The notes: a model not told the origin generated them from the sequence alone. A stretch of DNA of 64,000 nucleotides from an uncultured Flavobacteriaceae bacterium (GCA_964504555.1 CAZDFA010000001.1:32440-96439), one strand, 5' to 3'; positions 7,956-18,271 are shown, counted from the first letter of the stretch. Numbers and translations: made by a program.

Positions 7956-8537
7956 GAATATTTGTGCACTGATGTCTTTACTATTATTTTGCAATTGTTC
8001 AAAAAACGATAAATTAAGTGATAATGATCTTATTATTATCGAAAAAATAATCGAAGAACTTTCAGGTAAAGAAAAAATATATAGAAGTACAACCTACCTT
8101 GTAAATCCTTATATCGATTCTTTTGGTTTTCATCCCTATTTTTTAGAAAATGGATTGTCTAGTTATATGGAAGAAAAGAAAAATGAAACATTTGATGCTT
8201 TAGATATAAATGAAGAAGAATTTGAGACAATAAAAGACAAAGTTAATTCTAGATACCAAGAAGATATTTATAATGAGTTATTAGACTTGTCAAACTCCAA
8301 TTCTAGTAATTTAGTTTATACATTCTCAGGTTTAGATAAGGACATTGTTTTTGTTGAATTGTCAGTTCTTTGTGATGGTAAGATATCAAAGAGGATTTAA
8401 AAAATAAAAATATCTTAATTGATCGTAATAAAAGTGAATTGGGGTCAATTGCAGCTATAATAAGGGGTAATGAGATTGAGAAATTAATTCCAATTAATGC
8501 TTATACTAAAGAATTTTTACACGGTACTAATCGTTAG
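7948..8537 (+). pseudogene. Probable Rhs immunity lipoprotein; 1-nt frameshift near 8390 (track ORF ends at 8400, shifted frame continues to TAG 8535-8537)
   Basis: Overlaps the toxin stop by 8 nt; lipobox-like LLFCNC; the shifted frame reads EDLKNKNILIDRNKSELGSIAAIIRGNEIEKLIPINAYTKEFLHGTNR*. Confidence 0.6.
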
Positions 8538-9730: not shown

Positions 9731-10870
9731 ATGCACCACTATAAACACCTCTTTAACCTTTCTGAAAACGGTACTTATATCAATGCCGCCTATATGGCGC
9801 CTCAACTCAAAAGTGTTACTGAGATTGGATTGCTAAGTGTGGTGCGTAAGGAAAACCCGATGAGCATCAGCCCGGAGGATTTCTTTACCGATCGCAAACG
9901 CATAAAAGCGCTCTTTGCCCAACTTATAGATGCACCCGACTGGCAAAACTGTGCTATTATTCCATCCGTTTCGTATGGTATTGCTGCCGTAGCCAATAAC
10001 ATTCCGTTACAGTCTGGAGATGAAATTTTGATTATTGATGAACAATTCCCCAGTAATGTCTATGTCTGGAAGGAACGGGCTAAACAAAGTAATGCAAATA
10101 TCAAATTAGTCGCCCCGCCCAAAACTTTTAATAATCGTGGAAAATTATGGAATCAAGCCATACTTGTTGCAATCACATCTGCCACTCGAGTGGTGACTAT
10201 GGGTCACGTGCATTGGGCAGATGGCACTTTGTTTGATCTTAAAACCATCCGTAAACGCTGTGATCTGGTGGGTGCAAAACTGATCATTGACGGTACCCAA
10301 AGTGTGGGTGCACTTCCTTTTTCAGTACAGGAGTTTAGACCAGATGCGTTGATCGTGTCAGGTTACAAATGGTTGCTAGGGCCCTATTCACTGGGGATGG
10401 CCTATTATGCTGACACTTTTAATGACGGACAACCCCTAGAATACAACTGGATGAGTCGTAAAAACAGTGAAGATTTTAGTCAGCTGGTCAATTATCAAAC
10501 GGACTATCAACCTGGCGCAGACCGTTTTTGTGTAGGAGAATCCAGTAACTTTATTTTGGTGCCTATGCTTATCAAAGCCATTGAACAATTACTAGAATGG
10601 GGTGTGGATCATATTCAAACCTACTGTCAGGATATTTCCATAAAAGCAGTGGAGCAATTACAAGCCAAAGGCTGTTTTATAGAAGATGCTGCCTATCGCG
10701 GGCAGCATCTATTCGGTATTTATTTGCCACAAACTATGGATATATCCGTACTTAAAGAACGCTTTTTCGAAAACGGTATCTCCATTGGTTTCAGAGGTGA
10801 TGCGATACGGGTTGCACCGCATTTGTATAATACAGAAGCTGATTTTGAGCGATTGGTAAAGTGTTTTTAG
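9731..10870 (+). CDS. Class V PLP-dependent aminotransferase (cysteine desulfurase/lyase-like)
   Basis: YINAAYMAP, DGTQSVG, SGYKWLLGP (PLP lysine), IRVAPHLYNT. Confidence 0.9.
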   Translation: MHHYKHLFNLSENGTYINAAYMAPQLKSVTEIGLLSVVRKENPMSISPEDFFTDRKRIKALFAQLIDAPDWQNCAIIPSVSYGIAAVANNIPLQSGDEILIIDEQFPSNVYVWKERAKQSNANIKLVAPPKTFNNRGKLWNQAILVAITSATRVVTMGHVHWADGTLFDLKTIRKRCDLVGAKLIIDGTQSVGALPFSVQEFRPDALIVSGYKWLLGPYSLGMAYYADTFNDGQPLEYNWMSRKNSEDFSQLVNYQTDYQPGADRFCVGESSNFILVPMLIKAIEQLLEWGVDHIQTYCQDISIKAVEQLQAKGCFIEDAAYRGQHLFGIYLPQTMDISVLKERFFENGISIGFRGDAIRVAPHLYNTEADFERLVKCF

Positions 10871-10873
10871 AGA

Positions 10874-10905
10874 TTTGTGACCCTTAGACAAATAAACTAA
10901 ATTTG
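10874..10905 (+). promoter_or_regulatory. Complete Bacteroidota promoter for the TA pair: -33 TTTG (10874-10877), 20-nt spacer, -7 TAAATTTG (10898-10905)
   Basis: Both consensus elements at canonical spacing. Confidence 0.7.
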
Positions 10906-10909
10906 AGTT

Positions 10910-11143
10910 ATGGAAATAAATATCCTAAATGCTAAAATCGAACTCATTCAATGGTTAACCACCTTGGAAGATACTGCCTTGATTCAAAAAATTATGGAAT
11001 TAAGAAAGTGTGAAACTAAAGATTGGTGGTCAGAACTTTCAGAAGCTGAAAAAACAGCTATTGAATCAGGTCTTGCCGATGCTGATAATGGAAAATTAAA
11101 TCCACAGTCAGAAGCAGAAAAAATATATGGAAAGTGGTTATAA
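10910..11143 (+). CDS. Probable type II antitoxin (addiction-module-like)
   Basis: 77 aa, DWW.ELS..EK.AIE.GL.D...G pattern, overlaps the downstream RelE/ParE gene. Confidence 0.7.
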   Translation: MEINILNAKIELIQWLTTLEDTALIQKIMELRKCETKDWWSELSEAEKTAIESGLADADNGKLNPQSEAEKIYGKWL

Positions 11144-11426
11144 GATTTTTTGGACTGATCACGCCTTAAATGAATTAGCACATACTTTCGATTATTTAGA
11201 AACACATTTTACAGAACGAGAGTCAAGAAATCTTGCTGCAGAAATTGATAAAATCTTAACCCTAATTTCAAGAGACCCTCATATATTTCCAGAATCAGAA
11301 ACTAAAGGAGTTCGCAGAACTGTGATTTTCAAATTCAACACCCTCTATTACAGAGAAAAAGAGCATATTATTGAAATCATTTCTTTTTTCTCCAATAGGC
11401 AAGATCCTGATAGCCTCAAACTTTAA
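11127..11426 (+). CDS. RelE/ParE family toxin
   Basis: YKIFWTDHALNEL...FPESE...VRR.VI.KFNTLYYR...IEIISFFSNRQDP. Confidence 0.8.
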   Translation: MESGYKIFWTDHALNELAHTFDYLETHFTERESRNLAAEIDKILTLISRDPHIFPESETKGVRRTVIFKFNTLYYREKEHIIEIISFFSNRQDPDSLKL

Positions 11427-11435
11427 TAGTTGCGA

Positions 11436-11519
11436 TTCCGTGGAAACGCCATACGGGTAGCACCGTATTTGTATAATACAGAAGCTGATTTTGAGAGGTT
11501 GGTGAAATGGTTCTGCTAA
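11436..11519 (+). repeat. Diverged second copy of the aminotransferase 3' end (first copy 10790-10870)
   Basis: Encodes FRGNAIRVAPYLYNTEADFERLVKWFC* versus FRGDAIRVAPHLYNTEADFERLVKCF*; 29-nt identical core at 10821-10849 and 11467-11495. Confidence 0.9.
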
Positions 11520-11589: not shown

Positions 11590-14500
11590 GTGTCCAACCC
11601 TTCGCTCATTACTACTCTGGAACAGTCTCCACAACTTAGGAAACTAGGGGATACTATTGCCCAAACTCAAGAAACTCTTCACAATAACATACATGCCAAA
11701 GGTCTTACAGGATCAGCCTTATCTTTTGCGATAAGCAGTCTATACAAGCGATTAGAGGTGCCCGTTTTGTTGATTCTCAATGACAAAGAAGAAGCCGCCT
11801 ATTACCTCAATGATCTAGAGCAGTTGTGCAAGGAAGAAAATGTACTCTTCTACCCAGGGAGTTACCGCCGTCCCTATCAAGTTGAAGAAACTGATAATGC
11901 CAATGTGCTATTAAGAGCCGAAGTATTAAACCGCATCAATTCCCGCAAAAAACATGCACTCATTGTCACTTATTCTGATGCGCTTTTTGAAAAAGTAGTG
12001 ACTCGTCGAGAACTAGATAGGCAGACACTTAAAATTAATGTTGGGGATAAGCTGTCACTGGATTTCGTCAATGAAACCCTATTTGAATACCAGTTTCATC
12101 GTGTTGATTTTGTGACTGAACCCGGAGAGTTTTCGGTACGTGGTGGGATTCTAGATGTCTTCTCTTTTTCCAATGATACGCCCTACCGCTTGGAGTTTTT
12201 CGGTGATGAAGTGGATAGCATCCGGACGTTTGATGTGGAGACTCAACTTTCAGAAGAACAGGTCAAGAAAATTTCGGTCATGCCCAATGTAGAAAATAAG
12301 GCGTTGGATGAAAAACGAGACACCTTCCTTAAATACATTGCTGAGAAGACGCTCATCTTCATCAAAAACCGTTCACTCGTATTTGGTCGAACAGATTCCA
12401 ATTTCGCGAAAGCACAAGAAGCCTTTTCCAAATTATCAACCGAAATCAAGCATGCGAGTCCACAGGATTTGTTCTGTACTGGCGAACTCCTCAAAACCCA
12501 ATTAGCAGACTTTCTCACGGTAGATGTGAGTAGTACGATTGAGGGGATTACCCCAGATGCGACCATCCCCTTTGCGCAGCGACCGCAACCGTCATTCAAC
12601 AAGCAGTTTGACCTGCTTATTCAAAACCTGAATGAAAATCATAGGGATGGATATACCAATTACATCAGTTGTGCGAGTGAGCAGCAGGCGCAGCGGTTTA
12701 AAGATATTTTTGATGATTCTGGAACGGATGTAGCTCAATATGAAACCACTGTACTTTCGCTACATCAGGGCTTTATCGATGATGATTTGCGCCTGGCCGT
12801 CTATACCGATCATCAGATTTTTGAGCGCTATTATAAATTCAGCATTAAAAATGGCTATGCCAAGAAGCAGGCCATCACCCTCAAGGAGTTGACTAACCTC
12901 AAGGTGGGGGATTATGTAACCCATATCGACCACGGGATTGGCAAGTTTGGCGGGCTTCAAAAAATAGAGGTGGAAGGCAAGCCTCAAGAGGCAATTAAAC
13001 TGATCTATGGTGAGCGGGATATTCTCTATTTGAGCATACATTCCCTACATAAAATCACAAAATATAATGGCAAGGATGGGAAGGTACCACAGTTGTATAA
13101 ATTGGGTAGTCAGGCGTGGAAAAAGCTTAAAGCGAAAACAAAATCCCGTGTAAAACACATTGCTTTTAACCTGATAAAACTGTACGCCAAACGACGTATG
13201 CAAAAAGGCTTTGCCTATGGTCCGGACACCCATATGCAACACGAACTGGAAGCCAGCTTTATCTATGAAGACACGCCTGATCAAAGTACGGCAACAGCAG
13301 CCGTAAAAGCCGATATGGAAAGCGAACGCCCTATGGATAGATTAGTCTGTGGAGACGTTGGTTTTGGAAAAACCGAAGTCGCCATCCGTGCGGCGTTTAA
13401 AGCGGTGGATAATGGAAAGCAAGTCGCGATTCTGGTACCTACCACCATTCTCGCTTTTCAACATGCACAGACTTTTCGGGAACGACTCAAGGATTTTCCT
13501 GTGCGCATTGAGTACCTGAACCGCTTTCGTACCGCCAAACAAAGACGCGAAGTCATCGAAAGTTTAGAGAGTGGCGCTGTGGATATCGTGATAGGCACGC
13601 ATCAACTAACCAACAAAAACATAAAATTCAAAGACCTGGGCTTACTGGTAATTGATGAGGAACAGAAATTTGGTGTTGCCGTAAAAGACAAACTGAAGAC
13701 CATTAAGGAAAATGTAGATACCTTGACATTGACGGCAACGCCTATACCGCGAACGCTGCAATTCAGCCTGATGGCAGCTCGGGATTTGAGTACTATTAAT
13801 ACCCCACCACCCAATCGCTATCCTATTGAAAGTAGTGTGGTGCGCTTTTCGGAGGAGACTATACGAGATGCGATAAGCTATGAAATACAGCGCGGCGGAC
13901 AGGTATTCTTTATCCATAATCGCATAGAAAATATCAAGGAAGTGGCTGGGCTTATTCAGCGGCTCGTGCCTGATGCTAAAATAGGTGTAGGCCATGGACA
14001 ATTGGAGGGTAAAAAACTTGAAGGTCTCATGTTGTCCTTTATGAATGGGGAGTTTGATGTGCTGGTTTCGACCACCATTGTAGAAAGTGGTCTAGATGTA
14101 CCCAATGCCAACACTATTTTTATCAATAACGCCAATAATTTTGGCTTGTCAGACTTGCACCAGATGCGCGGTCGCGTAGGCCGCAGTAACAAGAAGGCCT
14201 TCTGCTATTTTATCACCCCCCCCTATAGCGCGATGACCGAAGATGCACGAAAACGCATTCAGGCATTGGAACAGTTTTCGGTGCTGGGTAGCGGTTTTAA
14301 TATCGCGATGAAAGATCTGGAAATACGCGGTGCTGGGGATTTGTTGGGTGGTGAGCAAAGTGGTTTTATTAATGAAATAGGCTTTGAGACCTACCAGAAA
14401 ATCCTGAACGAAGCCATTGAAGAATTGAAGGAAGATGAGTTTAAAGAACTCTTTAATGAGAGCGAACTCACTGCTACGAAAAAGAATAAGACTTTTGTCA

Positions 14501-14964
14501 AGGACACTGTGATCGATACTGATTTTAGTCTCCTTTTTCCTGACACCTATGTCAACAATATTGCTGAACGCCTCAATCTCTACACCGAATTGAACAATAC
14601 CAAAAACGAAAGCGATCTCGCCACTTTTGAAAGTAAACTGCTCGACCGTTTTGGCCCATTGCCAGAAGAAGCACAAGACTTACTCAACTCGGTACGCATT
14701 AAATGGGTGGCTACCCGAATAGGACTAGAAAAAGTGGTGATGAAAAATGGAAAATTAATAGGCTTCTTTATTTCAGACCAGCAATCGCCATTTTATCAAA
14801 GCGAAGCCTTTACCCAAGTACTACAATTTGTACAAACACAGGCGCATCGCGTTCAACTTAAAGAGAAAAAAGGACCAAAAGGTTTACGACTCTTATTAAA
14901 ATCTGATGAAGCGAGATCTATTGATGAGGTGATTGGATTGTTGCGCCCTTTCCTAAAATCTTAA
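11590..14964 (+). CDS. mfd: Transcription-repair coupling factor
   Basis: CarD-like YVTHIDHGIGKF, GDVGFGKTEVA, DEEQKFGV, QMRGRVGR, DLEIRGAG, TRCF C-terminus. Confidence 0.98.
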   Translation: MSNPSLITTLEQSPQLRKLGDTIAQTQETLHNNIHAKGLTGSALSFAISSLYKRLEVPVLLILNDKEEAAYYLNDLEQLCKEENVLFYPGSYRRPYQVEETDNANVLLRAEVLNRINSRKKHALIVTYSDALFEKVVTRRELDRQTLKINVGDKLSLDFVNETLFEYQFHRVDFVTEPGEFSVRGGILDVFSFSNDTPYRLEFFGDEVDSIRTFDVETQLSEEQVKKISVMPNVENKALDEKRDTFLKYIAEKTLIFIKNRSLVFGRTDSNFAKAQEAFSKLSTEIKHASPQDLFCTGELLKTQLADFLTVDVSSTIEGITPDATIPFAQRPQPSFNKQFDLLIQNLNENHRDGYTNYISCASEQQAQRFKDIFDDSGTDVAQYETTVLSLHQGFIDDDLRLAVYTDHQIFERYYKFSIKNGYAKKQAITLKELTNLKVGDYVTHIDHGIGKFGGLQKIEVEGKPQEAIKLIYGERDILYLSIHSLHKITKYNGKDGKVPQLYKLGSQAWKKLKAKTKSRVKHIAFNLIKLYAKRRMQKGFAYGPDTHMQHELEASFIYEDTPDQSTATAAVKADMESERPMDRLVCGDVGFGKTEVAIRAAFKAVDNGKQVAILVPTTILAFQHAQTFRERLKDFPVRIEYLNRFRTAKQRREVIESLESGAVDIVIGTHQLTNKNIKFKDLGLLVIDEEQKFGVAVKDKLKTIKENVDTLTLTATPIPRTLQFSLMAARDLSTINTPPPNRYPIESSVVRFSEETIRDAISYEIQRGGQVFFIHNRIENIKEVAGLIQRLVPDAKIGVGHGQLEGKKLEGLMLSFMNGEFDVLVSTTIVESGLDVPNANTIFINNANNFGLSDLHQMRGRVGRSNKKAFCYFITPPYSAMTEDARKRIQALEQFSVLGSGFNIAMKDLEIRGAGDLLGGEQSGFINEIGFETYQKILNEAIEELKEDEFKELFNESELTATKKNKTFVKDTVIDTDFSLLFPDTYVNNIAERLNLYTELNNTKNESDLATFESKLLDRFGPLPEEAQDLLNSVRIKWVATRIGLEKVVMKNGKLIGFFISDQQSPFYQSEAFTQVLQFVQTQAHRVQLKEKKGPKGLRLLLKSDEARSIDEVIGLLRPFLKS

Positions 14965-15001: not shown

Positions 15002-15856
15002 TCATTCCAAAATCGGAGTGACTCTGTATCCTTCTTGAACTAACAGGTTTATAAGACCATTTTCACCAGCCAAATGAGCTGCACCTACACCGTAAAAAAC
15101 AGATTGATCGATGGAGTAATTTACAATCTTAGGGATCCATTTTTTATTACGGTCATCTAAAAGCAGTTGCTTAAAATTCTTTCTGTCGGCAAAATAGTTG
15201 TCCGTATAATTATAGAGTTCTTGTATATTTTCTTCAGTATAAAATTGAATCATTTTTTGATAGAATGATCTTGTTTTTTCAATATTAGTAATCGTATAGA
15301 TTACTTCGTCTATTTCTTCATCAAAAGGAGTGTCTGTATATATGGGTATTAAGTCTACAGGAGTTTCAAGTCCCTCAATTTCTTTACCAGATTCTTTGGT
15401 TATTTTGATTAATTCATCCTCATAACTTGCTAGATTATTACCTAAACAAATTCTGGTGACTGTACTATTTAAAGGAAATGGTTTTAACTTATTAAGTTTG
15501 GAAAATGGAGTTCCTCCGTTTTCTTTAAAAAATTTCTTCAATATGTCTAGTTCACTTTTACTAGCGTAATTTTCTATACTATCATTATCAAAAATTGAGA
15601 GTTTTACAATTCCTTCAACAATTGAAGTGTTATCTAGATCTGCTTCAAGCACTGTCAGGCTAGAAAGATGTAACGACTTGATCATTTTTGTTTTTAATCT
15701 CAAGTCCTTTTTTGGTATGACATGCATTGTCCCAAACAGGTATGATGTCTTTATATCATCTCCTTCAATTTTCCATAAGAGGCTATCCTCAATATTATTT
15801 TGGTTACAACCCGTAAAGAGGATAAAAACAAAAGTAAATTTGATAATAAATTTCAT
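15002..15856 (-). CDS. TraB/GumN family protein, probable lipoprotein
   Basis: LLWKIEG...SYLFGTMH, GLET, RNKKW, VGAAHLAGENG; lipobox FTGC. Confidence 0.9.
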   Translation of the reverse strand: MKFIIKFTFVFILFTGCNQNNIEDSLLWKIEGDDIKTSYLFGTMHVIPKKDLRLKTKMIKSLHLSSLTVLEADLDNTSIVEGIVKLSIFDNDSIENYASKSELDILKKFFKENGGTPFSKLNKLKPFPLNSTVTRICLGNNLASYEDELIKITKESGKEIEGLETPVDLIPIYTDTPFDEEIDEVIYTITNIEKTRSFYQKMIQFYTEENIQELYNYTDNYFADRKNFKQLLLDDRNKKWIPKIVNYSIDQSVFYGVGAAHLAGENGLINLLVQEGYRVTPILE

Positions 15857-15881
15857 ATCAAGAACAAAGTTCTAATTTATA

Positions 15882-15936
15882 GTAAATGTCAGGTAAATGA
15901 CGGGTAAAATCCCATAAAATTCGTGTTGCAAAAAGT
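15882..15936 (-). promoter_or_regulatory. 11-bp-period direct repeats GTAAATGTCAG/GTAAATGACGG/GTAAA (15882-15908) with a minus-strand -7 element TACTTTTG (15936-15929)
   Basis: The repeats lie between the -7 element and the TraB start, divergent from an XRE regulator. Confidence 0.5.
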
Positions 15937-16004
15937 AAAGAGGCTTTACTATTGCATTAGAAACATCTTGTATCTTAATACATCCATCATATAAGGCAAT
16001 AGAC

Positions 16005-16859
16005 ATGATGATAAAACAACCCGAATTAGGACAAAAAATTTTAGAACTCCGTCAACAAAAAGGATTGACTCAGGAAGAGTTAGTTGAACAATGCAACATT
16101 AGCGTACGCACCATACAGCGTATTGAAACCGGGGAAGTAACTCCACGGTCGTTCACGGTACGCAGCATTCTAGATGCATTAGATTATGACTTGAGCTTGC
16201 TGCACACAGAACCTTCTGCTACAGAGCAACGGTTTAAAGAGCTCCTACTTATTGATGTGAATTCTAAAAAGGAAGCTTCTTTTCTGATCCAGCAATTGAA
16301 TCTGGCGTGGATAGCAGCAATAGTCTATTTCTTTGTCACTATCCCAGATATGATGGCAGATTTTTACCTGTATTCACTTGGCGAACCATTGTATGGGAGT
16401 ACATTATACATACTCATAAAAATAATAGTGATTCTAAGTTTTATTTTCTATTTCAGAGGGCTTATCCTCATCGGTAAACTGTTGCAAAATTATTTGTTGA
16501 AAATAACTGCCTTTTTGATGCTGTTTGCCGGAGTTATTTTTTACACCTATGATATTTTAGCTTTGATCATTCCTTCATTAGACTATAAAATTGGATTTAT
16601 CGCCGAGAATATTAGTTTTGGGATCATAGGCACTCTTTTTGGTTTAAGTCTTATACGGTTGAAAAAGCCCCTAAACACACTAGGGTTAATCTCAGGTATT
16701 TTAGAAATTTCGGCATCTTTTCTGTTTTTACTGGTCATGGTGTTCACATCAACTACCGGAATATTAGGTCTTATGCTGTGGTCAGCTGCAATTATTGTTG
16801 AAGTTATATTGCTGTATAAAGCAGCAGAGTTGATTAAGAAGAAAGAGAGGGGACTTTAG
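16005..16859 (+). CDS. XRE-family HTH regulator with a C-terminal multi-pass membrane domain
   Basis: LGQKILELRQQKGLTQEELVEQCNISVRTIQRIETGEVTPR followed by about six hydrophobic segments. Confidence 0.85.
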   Translation: MMIKQPELGQKILELRQQKGLTQEELVEQCNISVRTIQRIETGEVTPRSFTVRSILDALDYDLSLLHTEPSATEQRFKELLLIDVNSKKEASFLIQQLNLAWIAAIVYFFVTIPDMMADFYLYSLGEPLYGSTLYILIKIIVILSFIFYFRGLILIGKLLQNYLLKITAFLMLFAGVIFYTYDILALIIPSLDYKIGFIAENISFGIIGTLFGLSLIRLKKPLNTLGLISGILEISASFLFLLVMVFTSTTGILGLMLWSAAIIVEVILLYKAAELIKKKERGL

Positions 16860-16883
16860 ATAAGATTTCAGCCTTCGCGGAAA

Positions 16884-17243
16884 TTAAAACGGATAAAACG
16901 CATCTTCAAAATGCTCTAAGGATTCTTGTTTTCCGTTTTTAAGAACGGCGATGATATCAAAGCGCACTTCTACATCCAGATCCTTTTCTACCACATAAGC
17001 ATCGGCTACTTTGATAATGCTTTTGCGTTTTCCAGGAGTAACAAATTCCTGTGGATCTCCAAAGAAATTAGAATTACGGGTTTTCACTTCTATAACCACA
17101 AGAGTACCCTCTTCTTTTTGGCATACAATATCGATCTCATTGCGTTCATACACCCAATTTCGATCCAGAATGACATAGCCTTTTTTGGTCAAATATTGTG
17201 TAGCAAACTCCTCACCCCATTCGCCTAGTTCATTATGCTTCAT
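16884..17243 (-). CDS. YraN family (UPF0102) putative endonuclease
   Basis: HNELGEWGE..A, NEIDIV, VIEVKTR, RFDII; start moved to MKHN. Confidence 0.9.
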   Translation of the reverse strand: MKHNELGEWGEEFATQYLTKKGYVILDRNWVYERNEIDIVCQKEEGTLVVIEVKTRNSNFFGDPQEFVTPGKRKSIIKVADAYVVEKDLDVEVRFDIIAVLKNGKQESLEHFEDAFYPF

Positions 17244-17350
17244 AAATTTCTGCGAAAGCGGAAATCTCATCCCGCATTCAAGATTTATCGGTTGTATGAG
17301 TTTCCCTCCTCTGTCTACCATCAGGCAGGTTCGTGGAAATCTTTGAATTA

Positions 17351-18271
17351 CTAGTTCTCTTTTTCCAATTCTGGCTGGCCATTCACGTCAAACCCAAAAA
17401 TATCTGGTCGTGCATAATGCCCAATAGGATCAAAGTCCAATTTTGATCGGGTAATCTCCGTTAAATCAAGCTCGGCAGTTATAGCACCAGCTTTATCAAA
17501 TAAAGGTCCAGCAATAATCTTTCCATTAGGTGCGACAACCACGCTCCCGCCACGACACATCATTTCGGGTTCACCTTGAGCCAGTGCCTGATGCTCTTTA
17601 GAATACATAGATTTGGTAAAAAACTGATTACATCCCAAGACATAACAGCGCCCTTCAAGTGCAATATGTTGCATGGTTGCTGTCCAGCTATCTCGAGAAT
17701 CAGCGGTTGGGGCGATATAGAGCTCTACACCTTGTTGATACATAGCCATTCGTGCTAAAGGCATATAATTTTCCCAACAAATGAGTCCGCCCAGTTTGCC
17801 AATTTTTGTATCAAAAGTAACTAAGCCTTCCCCTGCGGCTTCACCCCAAATAATACGCTCAAATCCTGTGGGTTTGATCTTACGATGGACACCTAATAAT
17901 CCCTTTGAAGGAGAAATATAGAGCATGCTGCAGTACAAAGTCCCATTGCCCGATTGCTGCTCGGTTACTCCCAAAACGATATAGGTGTTTTGGTCTTTGG
18001 CCAGCTTTTCAATACGCTGCAAATCGGTATCCAGATTAAAGCTGTTTTCGTAATATTGAGAATAAACATCGCGACCAGCTTCAGTACGACTGCCTACTGT
18101 GGTGCCAAAGATGAATCCGCGCGGATAGCCTGGCACAAAAGACTCAGGAAAAACGATCAATTGGTTGCCGTCTTGGGCATATTTTGAAGTAAGATGTTCT
18201 ACTTTTTGCAGCGTCGATTCTTTGTCAAAAAAGACAGGACTATCTTGAATTAGTGTGACCTTAACCTTCAT
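17351..18271 (-). CDS. Nitrilase (carbon-nitrogen hydrolase family)
   Basis: E-K-C triad: FPES, HRKIKPT, LICWENYMPLAR; DPIGHYARPD. Confidence 0.9.
   Translation of the reverse strand: MKVKVTLIQDSPVFFDKESTLQKVEHLTSKYAQDGNQLIVFPESFVPGYPRGFIFGTTVGSRTEAGRDVYSQYYENSFNLDTDLQRIEKLAKDQNTYIVLGVTEQQSGNGTLYCSMLYISPSKGLLGVHRKIKPTGFERIIWGEAAGEGLVTFDTKIGKLGGLICWENYMPLARMAMYQQGVELYIAPTADSRDSWTATMQHIALEGRCYVLGCNQFFTKSMYSKEHQALAQGEPEMMCRGGSVVVAPNGKIIAGPLFDKAGAITAELDLTEITRSKLDFDPIGHYARPDIFGFDVNGQPELEKEN

Follow-up and report, generated by a model that had tools for sequence, protein, structure and literature searches.

A predicted toxin–antitoxin cassette between two diverged copies of an aminotransferase gene end in a Flavobacteriaceae genome

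In an uncultured Flavobacteriaceae bacterium, the 3' end of an intact class-V aminotransferase gene occurs twice, and the space between the two copies is taken up by a putative promoter and a predicted toxin–antitoxin (TA) gene pair. The locus belongs to a 64,000-nt stretch of the genome (GCA_964504555.1 CAZDFA010000001.1:32440-96439), which as a whole we refer to as the window. The two copies, tail A at the end of the gene and tail B stranded upstream of mfd, differ mostly at synonymous positions and share a core of 29 identical nucleotides. We propose that the locus is a displacement scar, in which two diverged alleles of the aminotransferase 3' end recombined with a ParE-type TA cassette as passenger and were joined by host recombination; we regard this proposal as evenly poised between right and wrong. 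The features on which the argument turns are the following.

9731-10870, plus strand: class-V (cysteine desulfurase/selenocysteine lyase-like) aminotransferase gene, 379 aa, intact (PF00266, E 5e-25)
10790-10870, plus strand: tail A, the aminotransferase's working last 26 codons plus stop (FRGDAIRVAPHLYNTEADFERLVKCF, then stop; repeat search, translation)
10821-10849, plus strand: core, copy 1, 29 nt, containing the palindrome TGTATAATACA (10824-10834); candidate crossover site (tail alignment)
10874-10905, plus strand: the cassette's own putative Bacteroidetes-type promoter (TTTG, 20 nt, TAAATTTG), conserved in four other loci
10910-11143, plus strand: antitoxin-like gene, 77 aa, co-conserved with the toxin gene
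11127-11426, plus strand: predicted ParE/RelE-family toxin gene, 99 aa (PF05016, 28.7 bits against a cut-off of 23)
11436-11519, plus strand: tail B, displaced orphan copy of the gene end, outside any open reading frame (ORF) (FRGNAIRVAPYLYNTEADFERLVKWFC, then stop; repeat search, translation)
11467-11495, plus strand: core, copy 2, the same 29 nt as 10821-10849 (tail alignment)
11590-14964, plus strand: mfd, transcription-repair coupling factor (from the Pfam domains of the same gene in L037, a 99.6% identical locus)

The repeat search returned a single direct repeat in the region, in which 10790-10866 matches 11436-11512 over 77 nt at 83% identity and a distance of 646 nt. Tail B starts 9 nt past the toxin stop and has no ORF body 5' of it; it is in the toxin frame, yet behind TAA TAG, and mfd starts 70 nt further 3'. 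Between the tails there are only the promoter, the antitoxin-like gene and the ParE-family toxin gene. We set the edges of this cassette by aligning the window with four loci that hold 62-71% identical copies of the gene pair. Homology sets in a few bases 3' of the tail A stop and runs as far as the toxin stop, which lies 9 nt short of tail B; because these edges meet both tails, the cassette (about 555 bp, promoter plus two genes) occupies the entire space between them. Compared with a plain gene-mfd junction, the locus is longer by exactly one tail and one cassette, 646 bp. A bracket of such a kind is unique in the 2.75-Mb genome, where tandem paralogues and intragenic repeats account for the remaining local direct repeats. 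A general bracketing mechanism in the host genome was rejected, since the genome self-comparison yielded no second bracket.

The manner in which the tails differ carries most of the argument. Over 26 aligned codons there are 14 base differences, 10-11 synonymous and 3-4 non-synonymous, corresponding to proportions of synonymous and non-synonymous differences (pS and pN) of 0.59 and 0.066 and to a ratio of non-synonymous to synonymous rates (dN/dS) of about 0.06. Only three residues differ (D/N, H/Y and C/W), leaving 23/26 identical (88%); in 50,000 trials, fourteen random substitutions always produced more non-synonymous changes than this. Of the 12.3 synonymous sites in the arms flanking the core, about 10 differ, which is close to saturation. 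These figures bear directly on the notion that the cassette inserted with a target duplication of about 80 bp and that the two copies then diverged in place. The geometry of the locus fits that class, being a selfish unit with direct repeats of more than 30 bp over a gene 3' end and no mobility gene (PMC2853133). We nevertheless consider such an origin very improbable: the divergence is overwhelmingly synonymous, and when an in-situ duplication was simulated in which tail A was fully constrained and tail B evolved neutrally, three or fewer amino-acid differences arose at P = 0.0007-0.004. Moreover, the repeats are near-identical in most of the published cases consulted (PMC2853133). A neutral tail B could not have remained an open, 88%-identical frame for as long as near-saturation of the arms would take, and most of the divergence therefore arose while both tails were working gene ends. 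On this pattern, both copies evolved as coding sequence in separate lineages and were brought together later with the cassette between them.

Tail A retains the His and the Cys-Phe that are conserved across nearly all orthologue tails. In tail B, Tyr and Trp take the place of the near-universal His and Cys, and the stop has moved by one codon; these changes would fit a short period of decay after displacement. Between the window and L037, the sole substitution in the repeat lies at position 10813, where tail A of the window reads GTT and L037 reads GTA, the tail B state. This may reflect gene conversion between the tails or an ancestral state.

Within the saturated arms, the block 10821-10849 is identical to 11467-11495. 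Given 14 differences, a uniform model puts the chance probability of a 29-nt run at about 0.01, and weighting codons by their synonymous sites raises it to about 0.02. Orthologues differ from the core at 3-12 of its 29 positions (17-26/29 match), and because they differ within it, constraint at the nucleotide level is unlikely. The core is most simply read as marking a crossover or a conversion tract. Each tail has the other as its nearest relative (64/78), and every orthologue is equally far from both (47-60/78). A sequence-only reading of the same DNA had described an aminotransferase end that recurs around a promoter and a TA pair, with a 29-nt identical core, and had taken both copies for coding sequence from different lineages. 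The repeat search and translations bear out the first of these points and the tail alignment the second, every one of the synonymous codon pairs it listed was correct on re-alignment, and the dN/dS of about 0.06 together with the rejected model of duplication and decay supports the third. The divergence is rich in synonymous changes, and not in the non-synonymous ones that simple local duplication and decay would leave.

Comparison with relatives places the cassette as the newcomer. Orthologues of the aminotransferase, at 64-74% identity, are present in 11 genomes of the genus. In one member of the genus (G022) and in one of another genus (G234), mfd comes immediately after the aminotransferase, and there is a single tail without a cassette. 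The one-tail junction in these two genomes argues that the window carries an insertion into an ancestral aminotransferase-mfd junction. The occupied layout is found in five assemblies of the species, namely the window and four others that are 99.6-100% identical, each from a different sample; the insertion is fixed in the species. A 71%-identical relative (L084:1119-2500, JGI contig BBAY78_10006759) holds an ECF-sigma-like (extracytoplasmic function) gene and a 202-aa gene on the opposite strand at this junction, with no second tail. Judged from these contigs, the aminotransferase-mfd junction is one that varies between lineages. Another genome of the genus, G018, contains an orphan but open 38-codon aminotransferase tail 6 nt past the stop of a spermidine-synthase-like gene (L019:1507-1620) and is otherwise without the aminotransferase; this tail appears to be a plain deletion remnant.

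Tail B could also be what is left of a diverged second aminotransferase, either a tandem paralogue or a xenologue, that once preceded mfd and lost its first 352 codons through insertion of the cassette or a later deletion. Such a history would account equally well for the synonymous-rich divergence. Orphan-tail deletions of this very gene do occur, as the 38 intact codons in G018 illustrate, and tandem paralogues are present elsewhere in the window's genome. Against this stands the lack of a tandem pair of the gene among 41 relatives and among the 125 Flavobacteriaceae genomes that have the gene, in which second matches were located on other contigs or hundreds of kilobases away. A second gene would also leave the identical 29-nt core to chance or gene conversion and would require both cassette junctions to have been trimmed to within 0-9 nt. 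Weighing these points, we think this history rather improbable.

The cassette itself is compact. Its putative promoter consists of TTTG at 10874-10877 and, after a 20-nt spacing, TAAATTTG at 10898-10905, which ends 4 nt before the antitoxin ATG; we take this motif to be a match to the Bacteroidetes -33/-7 consensus. The toxin's PF05016 match covers positions 1-89 of 89, and NCBIfam profiles and PDB sequences gave no match to it. The antitoxin-like gene overlaps the toxin gene by 17 nt, and the 77-aa partner stands beside the toxin in the cassette alignment and in every homologous locus for which a gene table was read. Even with E values of up to 5 admitted, neither Pfam nor NCBIfam yielded a family for this partner, which may represent an undescribed antitoxin family. 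We classify the pair as a predicted type II TA module of the ParE/RelE superfamily, for which the toxin profile, the overlap and the co-conservation all speak and a known antitoxin family does not.

Relatives of the toxin are scattered. We found 101 homologues; the toxin is present in 17 of 400 other genomes of the family, each from a different genus, and no close copy exists in the window's own genus. This patchy distribution is typical of mobile modules, and the family clearly moves as a compact cassette. In L040:1969-5237 (JGI contig Ga0321331_1004476), the setting is integron-like. There, the TA pair (toxin 71% identical) and a DUF559 gene lie between two repeats of 100 nt that are 87% identical, hairpin-forming and attC-like. 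In the same orientation, this repeat-bracketed cassette follows a 387-aa tyrosine recombinase (NCBIfam 'site-specific tyrosine recombinase/integron integrase', 222 bits against a cut-off of 220) and a 152-aa ORF. More distant cassette homologues, at about 50% identity, also lie in repeat-bounded arrays: L066:1-2800 (G411) has five copies of a 60-nt repeat, spaced 400-800 nt apart, that bound cassettes, L064 (G204) has units of 300-400 nt at 86-98% identity, L065 (G123) has a 104-nt repeat pair, and L063 (G076) has a 40-nt repeat pair adjoining an ORF that by eye resembles an insertion sequence (IS)-type transposase. These four appear to be Flavobacteriaceae cassette arrays. The window shows a different landing mode.

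Direct repeats with an identical core at the ends of an insert are also what a site-specific element would leave as attL and attR, and the locus could be a decayed element of that type or a lone cis-mobilizable element (CIME). Tail A would then be attL and tail B attR, around the 29-nt core, and deletions would have spared only the TA pair; alternatively, a miniature element might have been served in trans by a host tyrosine recombinase. A diverged arm, an identical core and a second diverged arm form the classic attL/attR pattern, the core contains the palindrome TGTATAATACA, and the genome encodes three tyrosine recombinases. Integration at protein-gene 3' ends is documented, and the elements concerned give rise to CIMEs without a recombinase that measure 1.2-13 kb or 130-220 bp (PMC7563491). 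The 71%-identical cassette of L040, in its integron-like array beside a tyrosine recombinase, likewise fits a site-specific origin. Several observations pull the other way. No integrase or transposase domain was found in ORFs of at least 110 aa scanned at 561-8400 and 15002-18271, that is, within about 10 kb. There is no leftover DNA, the cassette abutting the tail A stop and ending 9 nt from tail B, and because no junk DNA remains, two very precise deletions would be needed. Across the 125 genomes of the family in which the gene is present, neither an occupied site nor a second tail was seen; this end is no recurrent target. Finally, plasmid, phage and viral collections gave no match. A site-specific origin thus strikes us as unlikely, though it deserves to be taken seriously.

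Other carriers and targets were also considered. A plasmid, phage or viral carrier was rejected for want of a match in those collections. So was a tRNA or other RNA as insertion target: no tRNA was found in 1-30000, and the locus has no Rfam match. It also has no terminator-like site. Folding of the tail regions was no more stable than that of shuffled sequence (z between -0.2 and -0.9), in contrast to the attC-like repeats of L040. An integron cassette was rejected, since the window has neither an attC-like fold nor an array or integron integrase. Two ORFs of the window, at 7407-7955 and 7948-8400, matched no Pfam family.

For the displacement scar, which we favour, the following course of events can be envisaged. 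In one lineage, the cassette would have come to sit directly 3' of the stop codon of the aminotransferase gene. DNA bearing the gene end together with the cassette would then have entered a related lineage and recombined with the resident gene inside the 29-nt stretch of perfect identity. The gene would thereby have retained a complete frame, ending in tail A, while the second copy of its end, tail B, would have come to lie between the cassette and mfd and begun to decay there (His to Tyr, Cys to Trp, shifted stop). The joining itself might have been achieved by host homologous recombination, through single-crossover integration of a small circle or an event with homology on one side. An addictive TA pair could have made loss of the insert costly and so have led to its fixation in the species. 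We infer the order of these events, the use of host recombination and the stabilising role of the toxin. If a small circle integrated by a single crossover in the core, both tails would be chimeric, the left part of A and the right part of B being native and the left part of B and the right part of A incoming. If instead a linear fragment joined by one homologous and one illegitimate end, tail A would be foreign and tail B native. Because the tails are equidistant from all orthologues and no closer allele is present in the collections searched, native and foreign parts cannot be assigned.

The sequence-only reading had gone further, proposing that a foreign element of about 650 bp, composed of a gene tail plus the TA pair and without a recombinase nearby, had entered the gene and displaced its old end. 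The insertion at the aminotransferase-mfd junction is supported by the cassette-free G022 and G234, the domain scan agrees as to the recombinase, and the separate coding lineages hold. The equal distance of the two tails from the orthologues leaves no basis for calling tail A foreign and tail B old. The figure of about 650 bp stands as a minimum; it does not stand as the actual size of the incoming DNA, as more of the gene could have come in as well. The same reading had the repeats as a possible route of excision; all five assemblies of the species show the occupied form.

A number of points weigh against the displacement scar. The collections searched hold no close relative or donor, and the sign of a crossover in the core is the pattern of differences alone. 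With the full aminotransferase and its last 157 aa as protein queries, nothing above 74% identity was found beyond the species' own cluster, and scans of genome and metagenome contigs with degenerate tail-peptide patterns recovered no closer allele and no tail-plus-cassette unit. About 26 homologous cassette loci were checked, and none has a duplicated gene end; the idea that the cassette family generally carries gene tails was rejected on this count. About five of the 26 lie between non-coding direct repeats in cassette arrays, far above the control distribution. The 11-nt palindrome in the core would equally suit a site-specific recombinase, and the three tyrosine recombinases of the genome, two of about 300 aa and one of 368 aa without an obvious island, are on other contigs. 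At 32.7% GC, the cassette is near the genome mean of 36.8%, and its composition is no proof of foreign origin. Neither a small-circle origin nor an illegitimate join at the right end is documented at the locus.

The locus resembles several known systems. Elements of the ICESt3 family integrate at the 3' ends of fda, rpsI and rpmG in Streptococcus and restore the gene (PMC7563491). Like such 3'-end integrative elements and CIMEs, the locus has direct repeats of the gene end, an identical core, an intact target gene and cargo in between, and like CIMEs it has no integrase inside. CIMEs are mostly identified where a functional element adjoins them in tandem. Unlike ICESt3-type elements, the locus has no integrase nearby and no related element at the same target elsewhere, measures only 646 bp and carries the TA pair alone. 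For restriction-modification gene units, Nobusato and colleagues reportedly described insertion with long target duplication in 2000. Furuta et al. 2010 treated such units with long target duplication (PMC2853133), and a repeat-based life cycle has been proposed. The likeness is considerable: an addictive selfish unit flanked by direct repeats of more than 30 bp at a gene 3' end, no mobility genes, and a repeat that is single-copy at the cassette-free junction of other species and genera (G022, G234). Whereas in most of the restriction-modification cases the repeats are near-identical and derive from one target, those of the window are 83% identical with a dN/dS of 0.06, as expected of two alleles from different lineages.

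A third parallel is offered by the rhs, contact-dependent growth inhibition (CDI) and type VI secretion system (T6SS) effector loci, in which incoming DNA with a short homologous part of the gene end and a toxin/protector pair recombines into the gene, and the end formerly in use is orphaned further downstream (Jackson et al. 2009, PMC2935791). As in rhs C-terminal displacement, the locus would have an orphan former end downstream of an incoming toxin pair. Unlike in rhs and CDI, the host gene encodes a housekeeping-type pyridoxal phosphate (PLP) enzyme, the new tail encodes the same peptide and no new toxic domain, and the TA pair is a separate operon. Integron gene cassettes can also carry TA pairs. 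They share with the locus their compactness and the lack of a recombinase of their own, and homologues of the window's cassette occur in repeat-bounded arrays (L040, L066); they differ from it in that the window has no attC-like hairpin, array or integron integrase. The locus lacks a defining feature of each kind of system: it has no integrase or recurrent target, its host gene is not a polymorphic toxin, and its repeats are not copies of one target.

The way in which chromosomal TA modules move is, to our knowledge, largely unexplained, most of them being found in gaps of the core genome without a transposase or integrase. The locus described here is a clean footprint, in which gene-end alleles from two diverged lineages share an identical core and enclose only the cassette. 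More broadly, small TA cassettes might spread as recombinase-free integrative units that carry the final few dozen codons of a conserved gene as a portable homology arm, are spliced by host recombination into that gene in related lineages at a short identical core, leaving it intact, and penalise their own loss through the toxin; the locus would be a minimal example of 646 bp. We offer this extension tentatively and think it doubtful as a general rule. If host recombination through a carried gene tail proves true, it would explain how addiction modules that have no machinery of their own can enter streamlined genomes and stay there, why they often lie flush against the ends of conserved genes, and where the short orphan gene tails that annotation pipelines ignore come from. 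At 646 bp, the locus offers a minimal substrate on which this can be tested.

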